This document shows positions 1,642 through 58,188 of a stretch of DNA of 64,000 nt, in pieces. How positions within the stretch are numbered: position 1 is the stretch's first letter; each line of letters opens with the position of its first letter. The position numbers were made by a program, and so were the translations under genes. The stretch lies in the NCBI GenBank assembly GCA_028696715.1, contig JAQVGO010000003.1, positions 10,785 through 74,784 of the forward strand. Direction: 5' to 3'. The notes beneath the pieces are model-generated. The model was not told where the DNA came from. It was given only the letters and a program-made list of their open reading frames with translations, and did no database searches. The DNA comes from Bacteroidales bacterium. Lineage in GTDB: Bacteria > Bacteroidota > Bacteroidia > Bacteroidales > F082.

Positions 1642-1870
1642 GCAGTTTTTATCAGATTGTAACAAAAAACAGCAGGTAATTGTTGTGTTGTATCACTCAT
1701 ATAACTCGGGTGACTTGATTTAATTATCTGTGAGTGTGTTGTTTATGAAATCAAAGATATTGTTGCAATTTAGATTAAATACAAATAATTGCAAAAACAC
1801 AAGATTTGTTGTTATTTTGCACCATCGTATTTCAAATTGACCTCCTCAATCCATTGTAAGGGTCTGTTTG

Positions 1871-1977
1871 ATTTATAAAGAAGAGTGGAGAGATTAGGCT
1901 CAACGAAGCTCTAGCAACCTTCCCTGTAAGGAGTGGTGCTAAAACCTAAACCGGCCTTTGGTCAGGTGATGATAAAT
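1871..1977 (+). promoter_or_regulatory. SAM-I (S-box) riboswitch aptamer in the metH-metF leader
   Basis: P1 atttat(1871-1876)/ataaat(1972-1977). Core AAGAGTGGAGAGAT..GGCTCAACGAAGCTCTAGCAACC..(P3 CCTT/AAGG)..GGTGCTAAAACC..(P4 ACCTAAACC/GGTCAGGT)..GATGATAAAT matches the conserved GCAACC and GGTGCTAA blocks of SAM-I. Lies 100 nt upstream of a methionine-synthesis operon. Confidence 0.8.
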
Positions 1978-2077
1978 TAAATAAGTAAAAACCCATGCAG
2001 CAATTAATTGCCATTTTGTACCTTCCCGTCACTCACTACTTTTGTGATGCATTCTTTGTTGCACAAACTATTTTGCC

Positions 2078-49643: not shown

Positions 49644-50594
49644 TTATTGTCCGTAATTCGCCATTGCATTTTTAATTTGTTGGTGCAGCCCCGATTGAGC
49701 CACATCACGCAGCAACATCATCATATTTTTGATAGCGAGCGGGCTGCTGATACCATGTCCGATTACTACAGCACCATTCACTCCAATAATCGGACTCCCA
49801 CCATGAATTTCGTAATTAAACCTGCTGAAATAATCATCAAGTAGTCCGCGCTTTTCCATTAAGCGATACATTGCCTGAATTTGTTTGATTACAACATTTC
49901 CGGTAAAACCGTCCGTAATTACAACATCAGCACGATTGTTAAACAAATCGCGACTTTCAACATTGCCTATAAAATTATAATCAGAGGCTTCCTTCATCAA
50001 CACATAGGCTGATTGAACCAGCAGGTTGCCTTTTTTCTCTTCCGATCCAATATTCAGCAAGCCCACTTTTGGATCTTTGATACCCAGCACATACTGTGCG
50101 TATAAGGACCCCAGCAAGCCATATTGATACAGCACATCGGGCCGGGAGTCGGGATTAGTTCCGACGTCCATTATCACATTATTTCCACCATCGAGTTTTG
50201 GCACCATCACAGCACTCGAAGGCCTAATAACACCAGGAATTGTGTTAATTGTATAAACCGATCCCACCATCATGGCACCACTGTTGCCAGCACTTGCAAA
50301 ACCATCGATCTTTCCCTTACGCAGCCATTCAAATCCTATCACAATCGACGAATCTTTCTTCTGCTGGAACGCTTTGAGTGGAGAATCGCCCATTTCAATC
50401 ACAGCCGGCGCATGAACTGGTTGTATCCTGTGGTCCGAAATTTCAGCAGATTTAAGGTAGGCATCAATTTGTTGTCCTTCCCCAAACAAAAAAAGCATAT
50501 CCTCGGCTGCTAACTCGGTTAACAACAAAGGAATACTCTCAAGTGTAGATTGAGGTGCAAAATCGCCGCCGGAAACGTCGAGCCCAATTCGCAT
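49644..50594 (-). CDS. plsX: Phosphate acyltransferase PlsX
   Basis: 316 aa: MRIGLDVSGGDFAP, GNSGAMM, VITDGFTGNVV motifs. Classic rpmF-plsX-fabH linkage. Confidence 0.95.
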   Translation of the reverse strand: MRIGLDVSGGDFAPQSTLESIPLLLTELAAEDMLFLFGEGQQIDAYLKSAEISDHRIQPVHAPAVIEMGDSPLKAFQQKKDSSIVIGFEWLRKGKIDGFASAGNSGAMMVGSVYTINTIPGVIRPSSAVMVPKLDGGNNVIMDVGTNPDSRPDVLYQYGLLGSLYAQYVLGIKDPKVGLLNIGSEEKKGNLLVQSAYVLMKEASDYNFIGNVESRDLFNNRADVVITDGFTGNVVIKQIQAMYRLMEKRGLLDDYFSRFNYEIHGGSPIIGVNGAVVIGHGISSPLAIKNMMMLLRDVAQSGLHQQIKNAMANYGQ

Positions 50595-50624
50595 TTTGGT
50601 TCAGCTTCGGTCAAAAACCTTCGA

Positions 50625-50813
50625 TCAGGCTTTTGCTCCTTCCATCACCAACTGACCCTTGTAATACAAGTCGCCATCAACATAATAAGCCCGATGATAC
50701 ACATGAATTGTACCCGTTACAGGACATTTAGCCAAGTTTGGAAGTTCTGCCTTGTAGTGGGTTCTTCTTTTATCTCTTCTGGTTTTCGACGTTTTACGTT
50801 TTGGATGTGCCAT
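50625..50813 (-). CDS. rpmF: 50S ribosomal protein L32
   Basis: [21 protein letters not shown].. is the canonical L32 N-terminus. ATG at 50813 is preferred to the longer ORF-track start at 50882. Confidence 0.93.
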
Positions 50814-50853
50814 TTTAAAAAAATTATTAAATATTAAACTTCTTACATCAATA

Positions 50854-51378
50854 CTAGTCCAATTTGTTTCTGAGTTTTTCAAGTGCTTCCCACCTGGGAT
50901 CGGTTTCTTCTGTTACTGTCAGTTGCTCAAGACGTGCCAATACTAAAGGATCACAGCCTGAAGTTCCATCCGCTTTTTCGGGATGTACCTTACGAAGCGG
51001 TAGCGAAAGCAGGATATATTCATATAAAAGATGATATAAATCGAGCTGATGCTGATCGGTGGGGATTACCATTACTTCATCATCCTCTTCGTGAAAGGTT
51101 TCACCGAACTTAACATAAAGACTGTAATGCGAATCAATTGGATACATAAATTCCTCATTACACCTATCGCAGGGAACCTCAACTTCACCTTTCAGTTCAA
51201 AATCAAGCGTAAGCATATTGTCCTGCTTATCAAGTATGAGCTTTACAGTAACCTTTGCTTTTCGAATTTCAGCATAATCAATTGCCGCAAAAAAGGCTTC
51301 GTCCACAACAAAATCGTAGTGGTGCAAACCGGCCGACAGCCCAGCAATTGGAACGATAAACTCCTGAAAAGGTTTCAC
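50854..51378 (-). CDS. yceD: YceD (DUF177) family protein
   Basis: 174 aa immediately upstream of rpmF, the conserved position. Has the CDRC...C motif region and an acidic C-terminus. GTG start. Confidence 0.8.
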
Positions 51379-52576: not shown

Positions 52577-52596
52577 CCATCAAATTCTTTCATAAG

Positions 52597-52635
52597 AATA
52601 CCGTCAGAAAGCAATTTTCTGACGGTATTTTTTTT
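52597..52635 (+). terminator. Intrinsic terminator after the proline dehydrogenase gene
   Basis: Stem of 13-14 bp aataccgtcagaaa(52597-52610)/tttctgacggtatt(52616-52629), then a T-run to 52635. Confidence 0.9.
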
Positions 52636-52786
52636 AAATATCTCATAAATCCCGACCTTTATTATTTAGAATCCTTCTGAATTAGTGCAATTTAACAGGT
52701 TTTTATCGGGGTTTTTGTATTTTTCGGGTTCAAAAATTATCCGCTCCCGATTATCTGCAAATCTGAAATGTAAAACCAAACCAAAT

Positions 52787-53308
52787 ATGAAACTCCTCCT
52801 CACAGGTCTATGCGCCTTTTTGCTATCGCTGAACATTCATGCCAGTGACAGCCTGCCCCAGAGAGAAAATCAGCAGTTTCGGAAAATTGCACCCTCAACG
52901 CTGATTCAACTTGACAGTATTTCAAGTCATCCATTGCTTAAGGGTTTTTCAGCTTTGAATTTAAAAACCGTAAAAAGCAGTTATCAGTACAACAGCCATT
53001 TAACTGATAGTTTGATAATGGCTGATTCAGTTAGTGCAAACTTCTGGAATAAAATACTTTACGGCAGTAAAAGTCTTTTCGTTTTAGCAAAATCAGACTC
53101 CAGGTATGCTATGGCTCTTTTTTCTCCGATTGCCTCAGCGATTATCCTTATAATTATGATTCCGTTGTTATTCAGCCTGTTTTTTGTCCGGCTGAAATTG
53201 ACAACACCTGACTTGCCAGAAAATTTTTCAATTCAAAAGGATGATCCTAACCAATTGGAAGAAGAAGATGACAATGAATCTGAAAATTCAAAAACAACAG
53301 CATCATGA
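52787..53308 (+). CDS. Small single-pass membrane protein (signal peptide, ectodomain of about 110 aa, TM helix, acidic tail), function unknown
   Basis: The start at MKLLLTGLCAFLLSLNIHA gives a signal peptide. TM helix AMALFSPIASAIILIIMIPLLFSLFFV, tail EEEDDNESEN. The stop overlaps the next ATG (ATGA). Confidence 0.6.
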   Translation: MKLLLTGLCAFLLSLNIHASDSLPQRENQQFRKIAPSTLIQLDSISSHPLLKGFSALNLKTVKSSYQYNSHLTDSLIMADSVSANFWNKILYGSKSLFVLAKSDSRYAMALFSPIASAIILIIMIPLLFSLFFVRLKLTTPDLPENFSIQKDDPNQLEEEDDNESENSKTTAS

Positions 53309-55113
53309 GTGAATTCCTATACGAAAAACGCGTTGACAGCGACAAGCAGCTGGAAAAAGAACTGAGATCACTCATAAATAATTGGGCTGCAAAAACACCA
53401 CATCATCCTTTTAAGAATCTTGGATCTGACATCAAAATTGAGTCTATTTGGTATAAGCCAGCTTATCCAATCCACATCCAGAGCCAGTTCGAAGAGCGTA
53501 GCAAAGGACAAGATCATGAGCCATTCCGAAACCAGGAAATTCCAGAACAACGATTCTATAACACAAGTGATTTCAATGCCTGGGACATAGAATTACCAGA
53601 TCTTTCGGGTTTTAAAAATGAATCCAAGAAATTTTATGTTGAGGGTTCACAACATGTTGAAAATTGCCATACTTGCAATGCCCGGGGATGGATCACCTGT
53701 GTGCAATGTCATGGCGAAACAACAGTTACCTGCCCGCGCTGCAGTGGAAGAGGAAAAGTAAATTGCAGCAGTTGTGGTGGCACAGGAAAAAGAAATTGCG
53801 GGACTTGCGGTGGCTCAGGATATACAAGTCGTCAGGTACAGCGTTCGAGACAAGTTTGGGTGCAAGGGACATCCTCTTCAGGAGGATACTACAGAACTGA
53901 TTATTACACCGAAACAGTAAGAGACCGATGCAGCAATTGCGGAGGCACCGGCAAAAAAAACTGTTCAACATGCAGTGGAACAGGTAAAGTAAGGTGCGGC
54001 ACTTGTTCGGGCAATGGATATATTACCTGTCCGAGATGCGGAGGAACAGGGCGAAACACCTGCCCTACCTGCGAAGGCGAAACACAACTGATGCATTATC
54101 TATATGTGCAGCGCGATTTGAGCACCATGGATAAACAAAATTGCATCATACATTCAGAGGTGTTTGACCGATTTCCACAGTACCTGGACGAGTATCCGAA
54201 TTACAGTTCCAAAAGTATTTTCAAACGAAAAGACAAACATCTAAGTGACGACATCATTCCAGAGGAAACTCATCTCAATGCATTTATTAACGACTTCCTG
54301 GCCAAACATCATGAGGCCGAAAAACCGGATCATATACTTCAATACGAGCAAATAGAAGTATCGCGCATCGAAACCTGGGAGCTCTATTATAGCTTTAAGG
54401 GTAAGTCCTATGCCATGGTATTTATTGGAGACGAAAAAGAACTTATACCCGGAGAAAGCCCAATCTCTGATGTTGCTTTCGACCTGTGGCATGATGGAGT
54501 GCAGGCAGCAAAATTAATGCGCAACGCTACTGCCCTAAGCAAACTAAAAAAAGCCAAAGACATCAACACCTATGAAGTAAGGGAACAGCTAAATGAAGCT
54601 GTTGAAAAAGTAACACAAAAAGTAAATCAGGGATATAGAGCCGGAAGTTTGTTTGGATTATTACTCCTCCTGTTTCCGGGGGTTTTTGTGTTTTACAACT
54701 ATTACAGCCAGATTAATTATGTTCTGCCCTTTGTTTCCTTTGTGAATAATCCGGATCATTTTTTATTCGATTTTCATAGCTGGTCGCAAACACTGATGAG
54801 TTTGCTTTTGGTTTTTGGAGCCAGATCAACCAGTAATAGTCTTTTGACCAGACTGGAAAATAAAGTTCCCTCCGTAATAGCGAGATTTACTTTAGCCTTC
54901 ATTCTTACGGTAATTCTGGCTTTTATTTACACGGGATTATGGGCCGGACTTAATGTAATTGGAATTACGCTAATCATAACATTAATCGTTTGGCTGGCTT
55001 ATTGGGTAATCAAAATAATCCTGATCATTCTTGGCCTGGCCATTGGATTGATTATCTGGCTGGCAAAGATTGTCTGGGGAATATTAAGCTGGATTTACGG
55101 TTTATTCTTCTAA
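53305..55113 (+). CDS. Membrane-anchored protein with ten DnaJ-type CxxCxGxG zinc modules and no J domain, function unknown
   Basis: 602-aa ORF. CxxC modules at aa 121-175 and 209-260, a very hydrophobic Trp/Ile-rich C-terminal 150 aa, no signal peptide. Confidence 0.75.
   Translation: MSEFLYEKRVDSDKQLEKELRSLINNWAAKTPHHPFKNLGSDIKIESIWYKPAYPIHIQSQFEERSKGQDHEPFRNQEIPEQRFYNTSDFNAWDIELPDLSGFKNESKKFYVEGSQHVENCHTCNARGWITCVQCHGETTVTCPRCSGRGKVNCSSCGGTGKRNCGTCGGSGYTSRQVQRSRQVWVQGTSSSGGYYRTDYYTETVRDRCSNCGGTGKKNCSTCSGTGKVRCGTCSGNGYITCPRCGGTGRNTCPTCEGETQLMHYLYVQRDLSTMDKQNCIIHSEVFDRFPQYLDEYPNYSSKSIFKRKDKHLSDDIIPEETHLNAFINDFLAKHHEAEKPDHILQYEQIEVSRIETWELYYSFKGKSYAMVFIGDEKELIPGESPISDVAFDLWHDGVQAAKLMRNATALSKLKKAKDINTYEVREQLNEAVEKVTQKVNQGYRAGSLFGLLLLLFPGVFVFYNYYSQINYVLPFVSFVNNPDHFLFDFHSWSQTLMSLLLVFGARSTSNSLLTRLENKVPSVIARFTLAFILTVILAFIYTGLWAGLNVIGITLIITLIVWLAYWVIKIILIILGLAIGLIIWLAKIVWGILSWIYGLFF
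53665..54084 (+). repeat. Two blocks of five 33-nt (11-codon) CxxCxGxG modules inside the 602-aa CDS
   Basis: CHTCNARGWIT/CVQCHGETTVT/CPRCSGRGKVN/CSSCGGTGKRN/CGTCGGSGYTS, a 33-aa linker, then CSNCGGTGKKN/CSTCSGTGKVR/CGTCSGNGYIT/CPRCGGTGRNT/CPTCEGETQL. The period is exact, and the repeat is visible at protein level only. Confidence 0.85.
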
Positions 55114-55126
55114 ACAAATCCTTGTG

Positions 55127-56428
55127 TTACTCAACAATAACAAGATAATAAGTTTTCTTGCCCTTTTGAATGAGGATATAACGGCCGTTTAAAAGATCTG
55201 AGCTGGTAATTTGATAAGCCTCATTCACCTTTTCTTTATTGACGGAGAGGCCATTATCCTTAAGCATGCGACGTGCTTCCCCTTTTGAAGCAAAAATTGC
55301 TGTTTCAACGGCTAAAAATTCGGTGATATCAAGTCCTTCGCTTACTTTTTCCTTTGAAACTGTAACGGTTGGAACGCCCTCAAAAACGCTGATCAGGGTT
55401 TTCTCATCAAGTCTGCGTAAGGCCTCTGTTGTAGCTTTACCAAAAAGTATTTGAGAGGCTTCTTCAGCACCTTTAAGTGCTTCTTCGGAATGGACTCTGA
55501 TTGTAATTTCGCGGGCAAGTGCTTTTTGAAGCACACGTAAATGTGGTGACTGGCTATGTTCCTCAATCAATTTTTCAATCTCATCGCGACTCATTAAGGT
55601 GAATATTTTCACGTATTTGGCTGCATCCTCATCCGAGCAGTTAAGCCAAAACTGATAAAAAGCATAAGGAGTGGTTTTTTCGGGATCGAGCCAGATATTT
55701 CCTGTCTCTGTTTTTCCAAACTTTCCGCCATCAGCTTTGGTGATGAGCGGGCAGGTGAGTGCAAACGCCTGATTTTCGGCACCCATTTTTCTGCGGATCA
55801 ATTCTGTTCCGGTTGTGATATTTCCCCATTGGTCAGAACCTCCCATCTGCAACTTGCACTGTTTGTGCTGATATAAATACAGAAAGTCGTATCCCTGAAC
55901 CAATTGGTAAGTGAACTCGGTAAACGACATTCCACTTGCACTTTCAGATGACAAGCGCTTTTTTACAGAATCTTTCGACATCATGTAGTTTACAGTGATA
56001 TGTTTACCCACATCACGGATGAATTCCAAAAAGCTGAAATCCTTCATCCAGTCGTAATTATTCACCAGTTCGGCTTTGTTTGGAGCTTCAGTTTCAAAAT
56101 CCAAAAACTTGGCTAACTGCTGTTTCAGGCAATGCTGATTATGCCTGAGAGTGGCTTCATCCAACAAGTTACGCTCCTGCGATTTTCCTGAAGGATCGCC
56201 AATCATGCCTGTAGCTCCGCCAATCAAAGCCAGTGGTTTGTGACCTGCCAGCTGCAAATGTTTAAGCATCATAATGCTCACCAAATGACCAATATGCAAT
56301 GAATCTGCCGTGGGATCGATTCCAACATAAGCAGTTGTCATTTCTCTGGCTAACTGTTCCACGGTTCCAGGAGTCATATCATGTATCATTCCACGCCAGC
56401 GTAAGGCTTCAACAAAATTCTCAGGCAT
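55127..56428 (-). CDS. tyrS: Tyrosine--tRNA ligase
   Basis: 433 aa: HIGH motif (SLHIGHLV), KMSKS-equivalent KFGKT, C-terminal S4-like domain. Confidence 0.96.
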
Positions 56429-56554: not shown

Positions 56555-57565
56555 ATGATTTTTGTAACAGGGGCAAGCGGTTTGGTAGGCTCACATTTGG
56601 TTAGCAGATTGCTCAAAAACAATGTAAGAATTAGGGCACTGCGGAGACCTGATTCTGATTTGGGATTATTACAAAAGGTAATCAGTCGCGATCATGCGCA
56701 TCCGGAACAAATGCTCGATAAAATAGAATGGGTAACCGGAGATATTTTGGATTATTACAGCCTCGAAACAGCCCTCGAAAAAGTGCATACTGTATATCAC
56801 TGTGCAGCTATCGTTTCATTCGAAGGAACTGACAAAGGTAAAATGCTCAAAAACAACATCCTTGGAACGGCCAATATGGTAAATGCGGCTTTGTATCATG
56901 GCGTGGAAGCCTTTTGTTATGTGAGCTCCATTGCTGCTTTGGGTCGTTCAACCAAAGGAATACAAGTAACAGAAAAGACAATTTGGAAAAACTCTGATCG
57001 CAACACCGTTTATGCCCAATCAAAGCACGAGGCCGAAAAAGAGGTGTGGCGCGGCATTGCTGAAGGGTTACCTGCTGTAATCGTCAATCCGTCAATTGTT
57101 TTAGGTGCAGGCAATTGGGCTAATGGCAGTGCTGCAATCATTCATACGGTAAATAATGGCCTTAAATTCTACACCAAAGGAATCAATGGTTTCGTTGATG
57201 TGAAAGACCTCACCGAAGTGATGATACTGCTGGTACAAAAAAAACTTTTTGGCGAGCGTTTTATAGTTTCTGCAGCTGATGTTAGCTATCAACAGCTTTT
57301 TGAATGGATAGCAGCCGGACTAAATGTAGAAGGACCGAAAATCTATGCTAATCGTATGATGAGTAAAATAGCCTGGCGTTGGTTTGCCCTGCGAAAACTT
57401 TTAAGTGGTAAACGCGCTTTGATAACACGTGAAACTGCAAAAACAGCTCATTCAAAACACCATTATCCTGCAACCAAACTCATAGGGCTTACAGGATTCA
57501 ATTTCAAGCCTTTACAACAAAGTATCAATGAAATAACGGCGATTTATCGTGATGAAAACAGCTAA
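56555..57565 (+). CDS. NAD-dependent epimerase/dehydratase family protein (extended SDR)
   Basis: 336 aa: Rossmann motif VTGASGLVGSHL and catalytic YAQSK (YxxxK). Confidence 0.85.
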   Translation: MIFVTGASGLVGSHLVSRLLKNNVRIRALRRPDSDLGLLQKVISRDHAHPEQMLDKIEWVTGDILDYYSLETALEKVHTVYHCAAIVSFEGTDKGKMLKNNILGTANMVNAALYHGVEAFCYVSSIAALGRSTKGIQVTEKTIWKNSDRNTVYAQSKHEAEKEVWRGIAEGLPAVIVNPSIVLGAGNWANGSAAIIHTVNNGLKFYTKGINGFVDVKDLTEVMILLVQKKLFGERFIVSAADVSYQQLFEWIAAGLNVEGPKIYANRMMSKIAWRWFALRKLLSGKRALITRETAKTAHSKHHYPATKLIGLTGFNFKPLQQSINEITAIYRDENS

Positions 57566-57663
57566 AAAAATAATTTAAACAGATTCTAAACTACATGCTT
57601 TTCGAAAGCAGGCTGGTTTAAGTTTTAAATTTACGGCCGTAAACCTTTGCAAAATCAAGAATT

Positions 57664-58188
57664 ATGAAAAAAAATGTAATACTTTACTGGGCACCTGGTG
57701 GCAATGTTGAAAAAAACGCCAAAAGAATCCACGAATTCCTTGCCGGACATGACTTTGAACTGATGGATCTGGCCAGCTTTGACACCAATGAAGTTGAAAA
57801 TATCCAACGCTTTATACTTGGAATAGCCACTATTGGCGCCGAAATATGGCACGATGCCACAGGCGACAATCATTGGAATGACTTTTTTGTAAAAAACGAA
57901 AACGTTTCTTTTGAAGGCAAGCAATTTGCATTTTTTGGTTTGGGTGATCAGGTACTCTATCCCGATCATTTTGTTGACGCTTTGGGGTATTTGAAAGAAG
58001 AGGTTGAAAAACGCAATGGCACCATTGTTGGGCAATGGCCGGTTGGTGGATACACTTTTACTGATTCGGAAGGTATGGCTGATGGAAAGTTTTTTGGCCT
58101 GGCACTTGATGAAGACAAACAAGACCACTTAACTCCCGAGCGTATTCAAAAATGGGTGGAACAGCTCAAACGTGAAATGCAGCTTTAA
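57664..58188 (+). CDS. Long-chain flavodoxin-like protein with a divergent FMN-phosphate loop
   Basis: 174 aa, collinear with E. coli FldA (FGLGDQ..Y..F.DA, GLALDEDKQ..LT..RI..W). The SDTGNT loop is replaced by APGGNV. Confidence 0.8.
   Translation: MKKNVILYWAPGGNVEKNAKRIHEFLAGHDFELMDLASFDTNEVENIQRFILGIATIGAEIWHDATGDNHWNDFFVKNENVSFEGKQFAFFGLGDQVLYPDHFVDALGYLKEEVEKRNGTIVGQWPVGGYTFTDSEGMADGKFFGLALDEDKQDHLTPERIQKWVEQLKREMQL

Follow-up and report, generated by a model that had tools for sequence, protein, structure and literature searches.

We analyzed a 64,000-nucleotide stretch of a Bacteroidales genome (contig JAQVGO010000003.1, positions 10,785 to 74,784; hereafter, the window) and found that two adjacent genes on its forward strand form a real two-gene unit that is conserved in some Bacteroidales and Marinimicrobia. 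The first gene (52787–53308) encodes a small partner protein of 173 amino acids (aa), and the second (53305–55113) encodes a membrane protein of 602 aa with an array of CxxC motifs homologous to the cysteine-rich domain of DnaJ. The unit goes beyond chance because the cysteine columns of the array show little or no variation among 34 homologues and because the pair recurs in dozens of unrelated contigs. As regards structure, the data strongly imply that the products of the two genes make up a complex of two subunits in the inner membrane. A preliminary description of the window, made from the letters alone, had reported two open reading frames (ORFs), ten CxxC motifs, an ATGA overlap, an upstream hairpin, and a convergent tyrS gene 13 nt away, and all of these features were present.

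Conservation of the Gene Pair

Among 5.8 billion clustered proteins, 47 homologues cover at least 82% of the large protein at 25–99% identity. All are unnamed or annotated as "hypothetical," and they come from assemblies of Bacteroidales, Lentimicrobiaceae, Prolixibacteraceae, Carboxylicivirga, and Marinimicrobia. Using an alignment of 18 closer sequences, we scanned genomes for loci of the large gene. At 17 of 18 genome loci, the ORF immediately upstream of the large gene, in the same orientation, encodes the partner, the exception being a truncated locus; the partners at these 17 loci are 154–236 aa long, start with a signal peptide, have a transmembrane (TM) helix around residues 100–130, and end in an acidic tail, and most also have a P(E/D)N(D/F)-type motif. 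The partner was also directly upstream at all 18 metagenome loci having enough upstream DNA and for four of four distant homologues of 25–33% identity (loci L020, L021, L025, and L027), with L025 and L027 encoding partners that have lipoprotein-like signals and short tails. The partner is thus syntenic well outside the genome of the window.

In the window, the two genes overlap by the tetranucleotide ATGA (53305–53308, forward strand), which holds the ATG of the second and the TGA of the first. The pair recurs, but the overlap is not universal: of 18 pairs, 8 have it, namely those at 7 genome loci (out of 17) and the one in the window, and it is also seen at several metagenome loci. At the genome loci lacking the overlap, spacers of 21–137 nt separate the partner gene from the large gene.

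Across 27 loci, we recorded 119 neighbor proteins. No family occurred more than four times, a number reached by Na+/H+ antiporter, by DJ-1/PfpI, and by the Lnt domains LNT_N and CN_hydrolase. No universal third gene emerged from the neighbor-gene enrichment over these loci, and as the other neighbors vary by locus, the pair is an autonomous two-gene unit. The DJ-1/PfpI genes lie within a few kilobases downstream of the cassette at 4 of the 27 loci, from Carboxylicivirga and three Marinimicrobia (L020, 7009–7605; L018, 9735–10298; L043, 6690–7253; L049, 6798–7361), and at L021, genes for an AhpC/thioredoxin-like protein and for OsmC are found downstream. Such neighbors give a weak hint of a link to stress. 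At three loci from metagenome-assembled genomes (MAGs), the large gene is split or truncated (L017, 6001–7305; L018, 5995–7790; L019, 5995–7796); frameshifts divide it into two or three ORFs, or its 5′ part is missing, and these cases are possibly assembly errors or pseudogenes.

The Predicted Zinc Ladder

The 602-aa protein contains exactly ten CxxC motifs, which hold 20 of its 21 cysteines and fall into two blocks of five. The first block, delimited by homology to the DnaJ cysteine-rich domain (arm 1; 53659–53820, forward strand), has CxxC(xGxG) motifs at aa 121, 132, 143, 154, and 165, and the second, found by motif scan and alignment (arm 2; 53929–54084, forward strand), has them at aa 209, 220, 231, 242, and 253. 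The spacing within each block is exactly 11 residues in the window protein and in homologues P0001–P0031. In an alignment of 34 homologues with 24–84% identity to the large protein, 11 of the 20 motif cysteines are invariant, the remaining 9 are at least 90% conserved, and several glycines of the CxxCxGxG motifs are invariant. The cysteine columns from which the preliminary description had read its zinc modules are thus kept in the orthologues.

In the DnaJ cysteine-rich domain, the four motifs pair 1 with 4 and 2 with 3. Three features of the arrays in our family point to an equivalent arrangement at greater length. Blocks of equal motif number are the commonest form among distant members, usually 5 + 5 and also 3 + 3, 4 + 4, 6 + 6, and 7 + 7. 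Where the spacings between motifs depart from 11, they often do so in mirror image, the clearest cases being 11,11,11,11,15,19,15,11,11,11,11 and 11,11,11,21,18,21,11,11,11; informative mirror positions were equal within one residue in 178 of 313 comparisons, against about 122 from shuffled spacings. Finally, the number of motifs is even in 196 of the 238 arrays with at least six motifs, and in P0037, motifs 3 and 8 are jointly deleted in the alignment. From the equal block numbers and the mirror spacings, we infer that motif i pairs with motif N + 1 – i. The ten motifs of the window protein would then pair antiparallel as 1–10, 2–9, 3–8, 4–7, and 5–6, making one long hairpin with a two-stranded tip, and the ladder would probably comprise about five Zn(Cys)4 rungs. 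Of the "ten zinc modules" in the preliminary description, the ten motifs stand, but each is better seen as a half-site, and the ten would together build about five Zn(Cys)4 centers in a single antiparallel hairpin.

The predicted tip between the two arms is a basic β-hairpin rich in Arg, Gln, Thr, and Tyr (aa 173–208; 53821–53928, forward strand), placed by alignment and by an AlphaFold2 (AF2) model, with strands at 173–186 and 195–208. Its length is variable, and some relatives have an additional motif pair in its place. The ladder has a net charge of +11, compared with –4 for the domain preceding it and –9 for the one that follows. Two proteins with an FGE-sulfatase domain (PF03781), P0061 and P0064, have 20–24 CxxC motifs, and their spacings resemble two consecutive mirror-symmetric ladders.

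Domains and Predicted Topology of the Large Protein

The AF2 model of the large protein, built on the 34 homologues, has a predicted local distance difference test score (pLDDT) of 89.4 and no segment below 50, and it shows short strands between the motifs and long strands flanking them. An N-terminal signal peptide is absent from the protein. Ahead of the ladder lies an N domain (aa 1–118; 53305–53658, forward strand), defined by alignment and AF2, with one helix, long β-strands (53–73), and no match in Pfam, the Protein Data Bank (PDB), or Foldseek. Behind the ladder follows a middle α/β domain (aa 261–385; 54085–54459, forward strand) with a long strand at 261–281, which alignment, AF2, Foldseek, and Pfam place in no known family. 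Conservation extends well beyond the cysteines: R65, W93, and S115 of the N domain, Y362 and P386 of the middle domain, and N550 near the C terminus are invariant in the 34-sequence alignment, and Q348, G366, Y369, and S385 of the middle domain are nearly so.

A juxtamembrane helical region (aa 386–445; 54460–54639, forward strand) continues into the first TM helix in the AF2 model; its Foldseek matches are weak, to helical bundles of the MIT/TPR type at E > 1. The membrane domain (aa 446–602; 54640–55110, forward strand) was delimited by alignment, AF2, and hydropathy. This hydrophobic C terminus of 157 residues includes 7 Trp and is modeled by AF2 as four long helices and one short one. In order, it comprises TM1 at 446–468, an outer loop with the conserved pattern F(I/V)NxPxNFLYxYHAW, a weakly hydrophobic helix at 488–507, a basic cytoplasmic loop, a TM helix at 523–549, a turn at N550/G553, and a long Trp-rich terminal helix at 555–601. 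The length of this last helix (55005–55110, aa 568–602; alignment columns 701–728) differs by 11–17 residues among homologues. AF2 draws it as a single helix of 47 residues, which is overlong for one span, while in the shorter homologues the helix is too short for two.

The distribution of charges around the membrane domain is asymmetric: Lys and Arg precede TM1 and the 508–527 loop holds four basic residues, and the loop after TM1 (FVNNPDHFLFDFHSW) has no basic residue. Given the positive-inside rule and the chemistry of zinc thiolates, the first 445 residues are therefore predicted to be cytoplasmic.

The Partner Protein

The small protein begins with a signal peptide that we read from the sequence (aa 1–20, MKLLLTGLCAFLLSLNIHA/SD; 52787–52846, forward strand); a longer, GTG-started reading of the ORF is also possible from 52685. 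All partners share an N terminus of Met-Lys followed by hydrophobic residues, and the most distant ones have lipoprotein-like LxxC signals. The predicted periplasmic region (aa 22–108; 52850–53110, forward strand), delimited from alignments, has two invariant residues, R32 and Y66; its (S/H)PLL motif is near-invariant, and a DS motif is commonly conserved as well. L50, P114, P144, and N146 are further near-invariant positions, and judged from these columns, the homology of the partners is real.

Hydropathy places a TM helix at aa 109–133 (53111–53185, forward strand), and such a helix is seen at about aa 100–130 in all partners. The remaining residues (aa 134–173; 53186–53305, forward strand) form an acidic tail that, by sequence and AF2, is probably disordered; it starts with Arg and Lys (VRLKL) directly after the helix, continues with the P(E/D)N(D/F)-type motif, and then has a net charge of –7. 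The AF2 model of the partner is all-helical and of low confidence, with a pLDDT of 57.6 and the tail below 50. As the protein has a cleavable signal peptide and basic residues right after the TM helix, its N-terminal part would be periplasmic and its tail cytoplasmic, and the partner is predicted to be a bitopic inner-membrane protein with about 85 N-terminal residues in the periplasm.

A sequence search with the partner alone returned only homologues of 63–99% identity, as if it were a lineage-specific gene. Reading the loci themselves ruled this out, and profile matches reach down to 18–25% identity: the partner is conserved but evolves fast.

Searches against Known Families and Structures

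Database searches recognized the ladder and little else. In Pfam, the 602-aa protein has only subthreshold matches, to DnaJ_CXXCXGXG (PF00684; 22.3 bits against a cutoff of 32.7), to BSD2_CRD (PF25436; 16.9 bits against 27), and to GRXCR1-2_C (also below its cutoff), and the partner has no match. At the level of the family, the signal is clearer: PF00684 is matched by 32 of 34 members (best E 1.1e-12), PF25436 by 29 of 34 (best E 2.3e-6), covering only part of the array, and PF25112 by 12 of 34. When compared with the PDB, the family profile matched DnaJ (1exk, E 9e-7), BSD2 (E 7e-6), and EMB2737 (E 8.4e-6), each in the cysteine-rich region only. The proposal that the CxxCxGxG array is homologous to the DnaJ/BSD2 cysteine-rich domain is thus upheld by the profile matches. 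A PDB search with the single sequence likewise matched the cysteine-rich part alone, without reaching significance.

Neither NCBIfam nor PHROGs gave a meaningful match for either protein, the PHROG matches covering little beyond the cysteine-rich region, and PADLOC-DB 2.0 gave none at E ≤ 1. Foldseek found no PDB structure at E ≤ 1e-3 with the full-length model; the best match was BSD2 at 0.035, to the finger only. Against BFVD, there was one match at E ≤ 1e-3 (1.3e-4), over a stretch of 144 columns, which we read as a match of the cysteine-rich type. Low-probability Foldseek matches to pore-forming toxins and secretins were discarded as probably caused by long β-ribbons. No DNA- or RNA-binding family was matched in the Pfam and PDB profile searches, and no transporter or channel family in Pfam and NCBIfam. 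The earlier statement that neither protein falls in a characterized family therefore agrees with the outcome in Pfam, NCBIfam, PADLOC, PHROGs, PDB, and Foldseek, and a literature search found no description of the family.

The absence of a J domain, also stated previously, was confirmed: the 602-aa sequence contains no HPD tripeptide and has no match to PF00226. None of the 34 members has a DnaJ_C match in Pfam, full-length DnaJ (6jzb) matches in the cysteine-rich region only, and DnaJ structures are absent from the top 50 Foldseek matches. With neither a DnaJ_C domain nor a match to a DnaJ structure, we found no support for the idea that the N and middle domains represent a diverged DnaJ CTD-I with an inserted finger. 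The large protein also does not fit a zinc-binding anti-sigma (ZAS) factor, which has an HxxxCxxC anti-sigma domain and an ECF sigma factor gene next to its own. No sigma-factor family is among the 25 most frequent neighbor families of the 27 loci, the query and the 34 members have no anti-sigma match in Pfam, and in the window the pair is flanked by tyrS and by a gene resembling proline dehydrogenase. The pair in the window has the traits of the family that we propose: the N domain, a mirror array of 6–14 CxxC motifs, the middle domain, the Trp-rich membrane domain, and the upstream partner.

Comparison with Known Systems

Type I DnaJ (PF00684; 1exk) shares with the large protein the homologous CxxCxGxG half-sites and the predicted topology, in which the first motif joins the last, the inner motifs join each other, and the hairpin is inserted between β-strands of the flanking domain. 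A J domain itself occurs in two relatives of the window protein. Unlike DnaJ, with its four motifs and two zinc ions, the window protein has ten motifs, presumably about five zinc ions, and a strict 11-residue repeat. It has neither J domain nor G/F region nor DnaJ C-terminal domains, is membrane-anchored, and has an obligatory small partner. By its sequence features, it is not a DnaJ, since it lacks a J domain and DnaJ_C domains and has ten motifs instead of four.

The large protein also resembles J-less fingers. In BSD2 and related plastid proteins (PF25436; 6ekb, 9ci1), as here, the CxxCxGxG array is the sole recognizable part, and BSD2 is both the best Foldseek match and a profile match. 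BSD2 is an assembly chaperone or holdase. It is, however, a small soluble stromal protein of eukaryotic plastids with four motifs and without the N, middle, and membrane domains or a partner, whereas the window protein has 602 aa, with about 300 other cytoplasmic residues and a 157-residue membrane domain, and belongs to bacteria of the FCB group. The plant protein ORANGE (OR, DnaJE1) is anchored in the membrane, where it holds its client phytoene synthase. It is described as a J-less protein with a DnaJ-type zinc finger (PMC12063368). OR thus resembles the window protein in being a J-less and membrane-anchored finger protein, membership having been compared by Pfam only; it differs in domain order, since in OR the client region is N-terminal, two TM helices follow, and the four-motif finger lies at the C terminus, and only the zinc motifs are homologous.

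Proteins of the EMB2737/AtTam37 type (8xku chain R; PF25112) match the cysteine-rich profile, and their fingers are structural or binding parts of a plastid envelope membrane complex, but the match is limited to the zinc motifs and the remainder is unrelated. The bacterial anti-TRAP (PF15777; 2bx9, 3lcz) gave weak matches. It too has a J-less DnaJ-type zinc motif and acts by binding another protein, but it is a soluble protein of 53 residues with one zinc site per chain and no membrane part. For Hsp33 and RsrA, in which oxidation of a Zn(Cys)4 site leads to conformational change, there may be a functional analogy only, and we found no similarity in sequence or fold. The known kind to which the large protein belongs is therefore that of J-less DnaJ-type zinc-finger proteins, with the base domains, the membrane domain, and the partner unclassified.

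Wider Distribution of the Core

A profile search of 1.84 billion representative proteins gave 11,138 matches at E ≤ 1e-3, 3,725 at E ≤ 1e-10, and 570 at E ≤ 1e-30, and many of the 11,138 probably share only the finger. Of the best 150 clusters, about 60 align over the full length of the profile, membrane domain included; in many others, the match runs only from about position 5 to position 460, through the N domain, the ladder, the middle domain, and the helical region, and the termini are different. A Pfam scan of 20 proteins with other termini revealed this core fused to ankyrin, TPR, GYF (GYF_2), and zinc ribbons, as well as to Ser/Thr kinase domains (P0171, P0191, and P0196); SEL1 and TerB domains also occur among the relatives. 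P0161 has an N-terminal J domain (PF00226, 29.9 bits, above the cutoff), and P0194 has one that is 45% identical to that of DnaJ (E 3e-10) and is followed by the WAxxIPHH motif of the family. Both J domains contain the HPD tripeptide, and in each protein the J domain is combined with a membrane anchor and an expanded zinc ladder.

The distant variants whose context we examined have no partner gene. Three of them, with different C termini, adjoin genes of conflict or mobility. One adjoins HsdR and CoiA (L023, 5001–7346), another a caspase-like peptidase C14, Macro, ThiF, and a prokaryotic E2 (L029, 3001–5295), and a third an integrase and AbiEii (L030, 3001–4683); the variant at L028 has no conflict context and a PDDEXK protein upstream. 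No relative was found among the viral contigs of IMG/VR.

Proposed Function and Alternatives

In the mechanism that we propose, the large subunit would have a novel cytoplasmic α/β base, made of the N and middle domains, that bears the hairpin of ten half-sites; the hairpin would end in the basic β-ribbon tip, and a Trp-rich bundle of four to five helices would anchor the subunit. The small subunit would be exported by its signal peptide, place about 85 helical residues in the periplasm, cross the membrane once, and leave its disordered acidic tail in the cytoplasm. Together, ladder and base could serve as a platform that binds clients on the cytoplasmic side of the membrane without a J domain, in the role of a holdase or an adaptor. 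The partner would couple this platform to the periplasm, and its acidic tail would probably dock on the basic ladder, or compete for it, and so regulate the access of clients. We compared charges in 23 distinct pairs: every ladder carries a net positive charge (+3 to +16), the tail carries a net negative one in 19 of them (mean –9.7), and there is a weak negative correlation between the two (Spearman rho –0.42, p 0.049; uncorrected for phylogeny). Charges that complement each other in this way suggest contact between tail and ladder and, possibly, regulation of the ladder by the tail.

We consider a J-independent protein-binding platform at the membrane, be it holdase or adaptor, quite possible if short of probable. 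It is favored because the sole recognizable module binds proteins in DnaJ, BSD2, OR, and anti-TRAP and because the core is occasionally fused to a J domain and often to protein-interaction repeats. Among the roles suggested in the preliminary description, client binding of the holdase type has thus gained some support, from the two J-domain clusters, while metal sensing has gained none. Several observations weigh against the platform and the model behind it. Fusions to J domains are rare, with two among the sequences examined, no chaperone gene (dnaK, grpE) is linked in the 27 loci, and the contexts of distant relatives, with kinases, TerB, and conflict islands, point to signaling or defense. 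For the N, middle, and membrane domains, the searches turned up no known relative. The 1–10 to 5–6 pairing is read from the symmetry of the sequence, and an odd number of motifs occurs in 42 of the 238 arrays. The partner was modeled with low confidence, at the pLDDT of 57.6, and the correlation of charges is weak and ignores phylogeny, with four partners lacking an acidic tail.

The main rival to the platform is an oxidant-labile zinc switch, in which the 20 zinc thiolates would sense redox state in the manner of Hsp33 and the zinc anti-sigma factor RsrA: oxidants would release zinc, the ladder would collapse or form disulfides, and the change would be passed to the membrane domain and partner or would unmask a holdase. 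The zinc-thiolate centers of Hsp33, RsrA, and DnaJ are redox-sensitive. The twenty conserved cysteines in half-sites of the Zn(Cys)4 type would suit such a role, as would the hosts, which are Bacteroidales and Marinimicrobia MAGs and mostly anaerobes, and the stress-related genes at 4 of 27 loci in two lineages (DJ-1/PfpI) and at L021. Yet no redox gene is consistently linked over the 27 loci, the pair has no thioredoxin-fold or other redox partner, and the strict xGxG scaffold and rung register would fit a structural zinc role equally well; we regard the switch as unlikely. We give the same weight to a signaling module: the cytoplasmic core would sense a ligand or protein, and in this family the Trp-rich membrane domain would answer by changing conformation or by channel activity, with the partner modulating it as a signal relay across the envelope. 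The fusions of the core to Ser/Thr kinases and TerB are consistent with it, and so are the conservation of both the partner's periplasmic region and the outer loop of the large protein and the conserved polar N481 and N550 together with G553 within the membrane domain; on the other hand, the window protein has no recognizable output domain, its membrane domain matches no transporter or channel family, and no transcription factor or sigma factor is linked.

A role in defense or abortive infection, in which the ladder would sense an invader protein, the hydrophobic C terminus would permeabilize the membrane, and the partner would be a regulator or antidote, appears improbable. The unit is compact and patchily distributed, and distant variants of the core do adjoin a caspase-like peptidase with Macro/ThiF/E2, an integrase with AbiEii, and HsdR, but these are the variants with different C termini and no partner. 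The family of the window, by contrast, sits among housekeeping genes (plsX, yceD, the proline-dehydrogenase-like gene, tyrS, and flavodoxin), and neither the PADLOC and IMG/VR searches nor the PHROG matches, which extend little beyond the cysteine-rich region, lend support. Still less probable is a binder of polyanions or a zinc store, with the basic ladder binding nucleic acid or anionic lipid head groups and so tethering them at the membrane, or buffering zinc. The net charge of the ladder and its Arg/Gln/Thr/Tyr-rich ribbon tip would allow this, and the partner tail, itself a polyanion, could mimic such a ligand; but no DNA- or RNA-binding family was matched, no metal-homeostasis gene is consistently linked, and the cysteine-rich domains that were matched, those of DnaJ, BSD2, and anti-TRAP, are protein-binding modules. 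A bolder proposal, which we think unlikely to hold as a whole, is that the core with its variable ladder is a prokaryotic module that is widespread but has gone unrecognized, with 570 clusters at E ≤ 1e-30, no entry in Pfam or NCBIfam, and no structural relative in the PDB, and that its rung number is tuned by the gain and loss of motif pairs. Joined to the periplasm-spanning, acidic-tailed partner, this membrane-bound bacterial relative of the DnaJ zinc finger would be a new trans-envelope device, a rigid and oxidant-labile multi-zinc rod gating client capture or membrane permeability by a mechanism unlike that of any characterized chaperone or sensor.

Boundaries and Flanking Genes

On its 5′ side, the cassette in the window is bounded by an intrinsic-terminator hairpin and U run (52594–52640, forward strand) identified by RNA folding. 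The hairpin itself (52594–52632) has 17 pairs, including A–U and G–U extensions, and a folding energy of –21.8 kcal/mol, and none of 200 shuffled sequences folds equally well (z –7.8). A simple terminator scan did not report a hairpin at 52594–52632, and the folding confirmed it. This terminator ends a proline-dehydrogenase-like gene, whose ORF matches ProDH below the family cutoff. On the 3′ side, the convergent tyrS (55127–56428; TIGR00234, 402.6 bits) has its stop codon 13 nt from that of the 602-aa ORF, and this tight spacing is specific to the lineage of the window. The label of an "insulated cassette" is descriptively accurate, but the terminator is that of the upstream gene and the closeness of tyrS is a feature of one lineage. 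No promoter was identified for the pair, the nearest candidate being a near-match to the Bacteroidetes –7 motif (TATTTTTC at 52718).

Farther upstream, the reverse strand carries housekeeping genes (49644–51378): plsX, a short ORF (50625–50882) whose product we take to resemble ribosomal protein L32, and a YceD-like gene. Downstream, on the forward strand (56555–58188), are a gene for an SDR epimerase-like protein and one for a long-chain flavodoxin. The gene order of these flanks is retained in the closest relatives, L001, L003, and L004. An Rfam scan of the 64-kb window gave a SAM riboswitch (RF00162, an S-box leader; 1870–1978, forward strand; 65.7 bits against a gathering score of 44.4) as its sole match, and no tRNA genes were found.

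Significance

The DnaJ zinc-finger domain is among the best-known chaperone modules, a two-zinc unit of four motifs. Bacteria appear to have extended this unit to hairpins of three to seven or more rungs, mounted it on an α/β base, and combined it with membrane anchors as well as with J, kinase, and repeat domains; such an architecture and its modular variation in length are relevant to specialists in chaperones and in zinc proteins. The strictly conserved partner makes the system tractable, with two genes for what would be one complex. Should the function turn out to be mundane, the family would still be a well-defined target for a new Pfam entry. If the ladder is client-binding or redox-gated, the family would provide a natural series for probing how a cysteine-rich domain acts without Hsp70, and it would represent a new class of membrane-associated proteostasis or signaling factor in the environmentally abundant and poorly studied Bacteroidales and Marinimicrobia.

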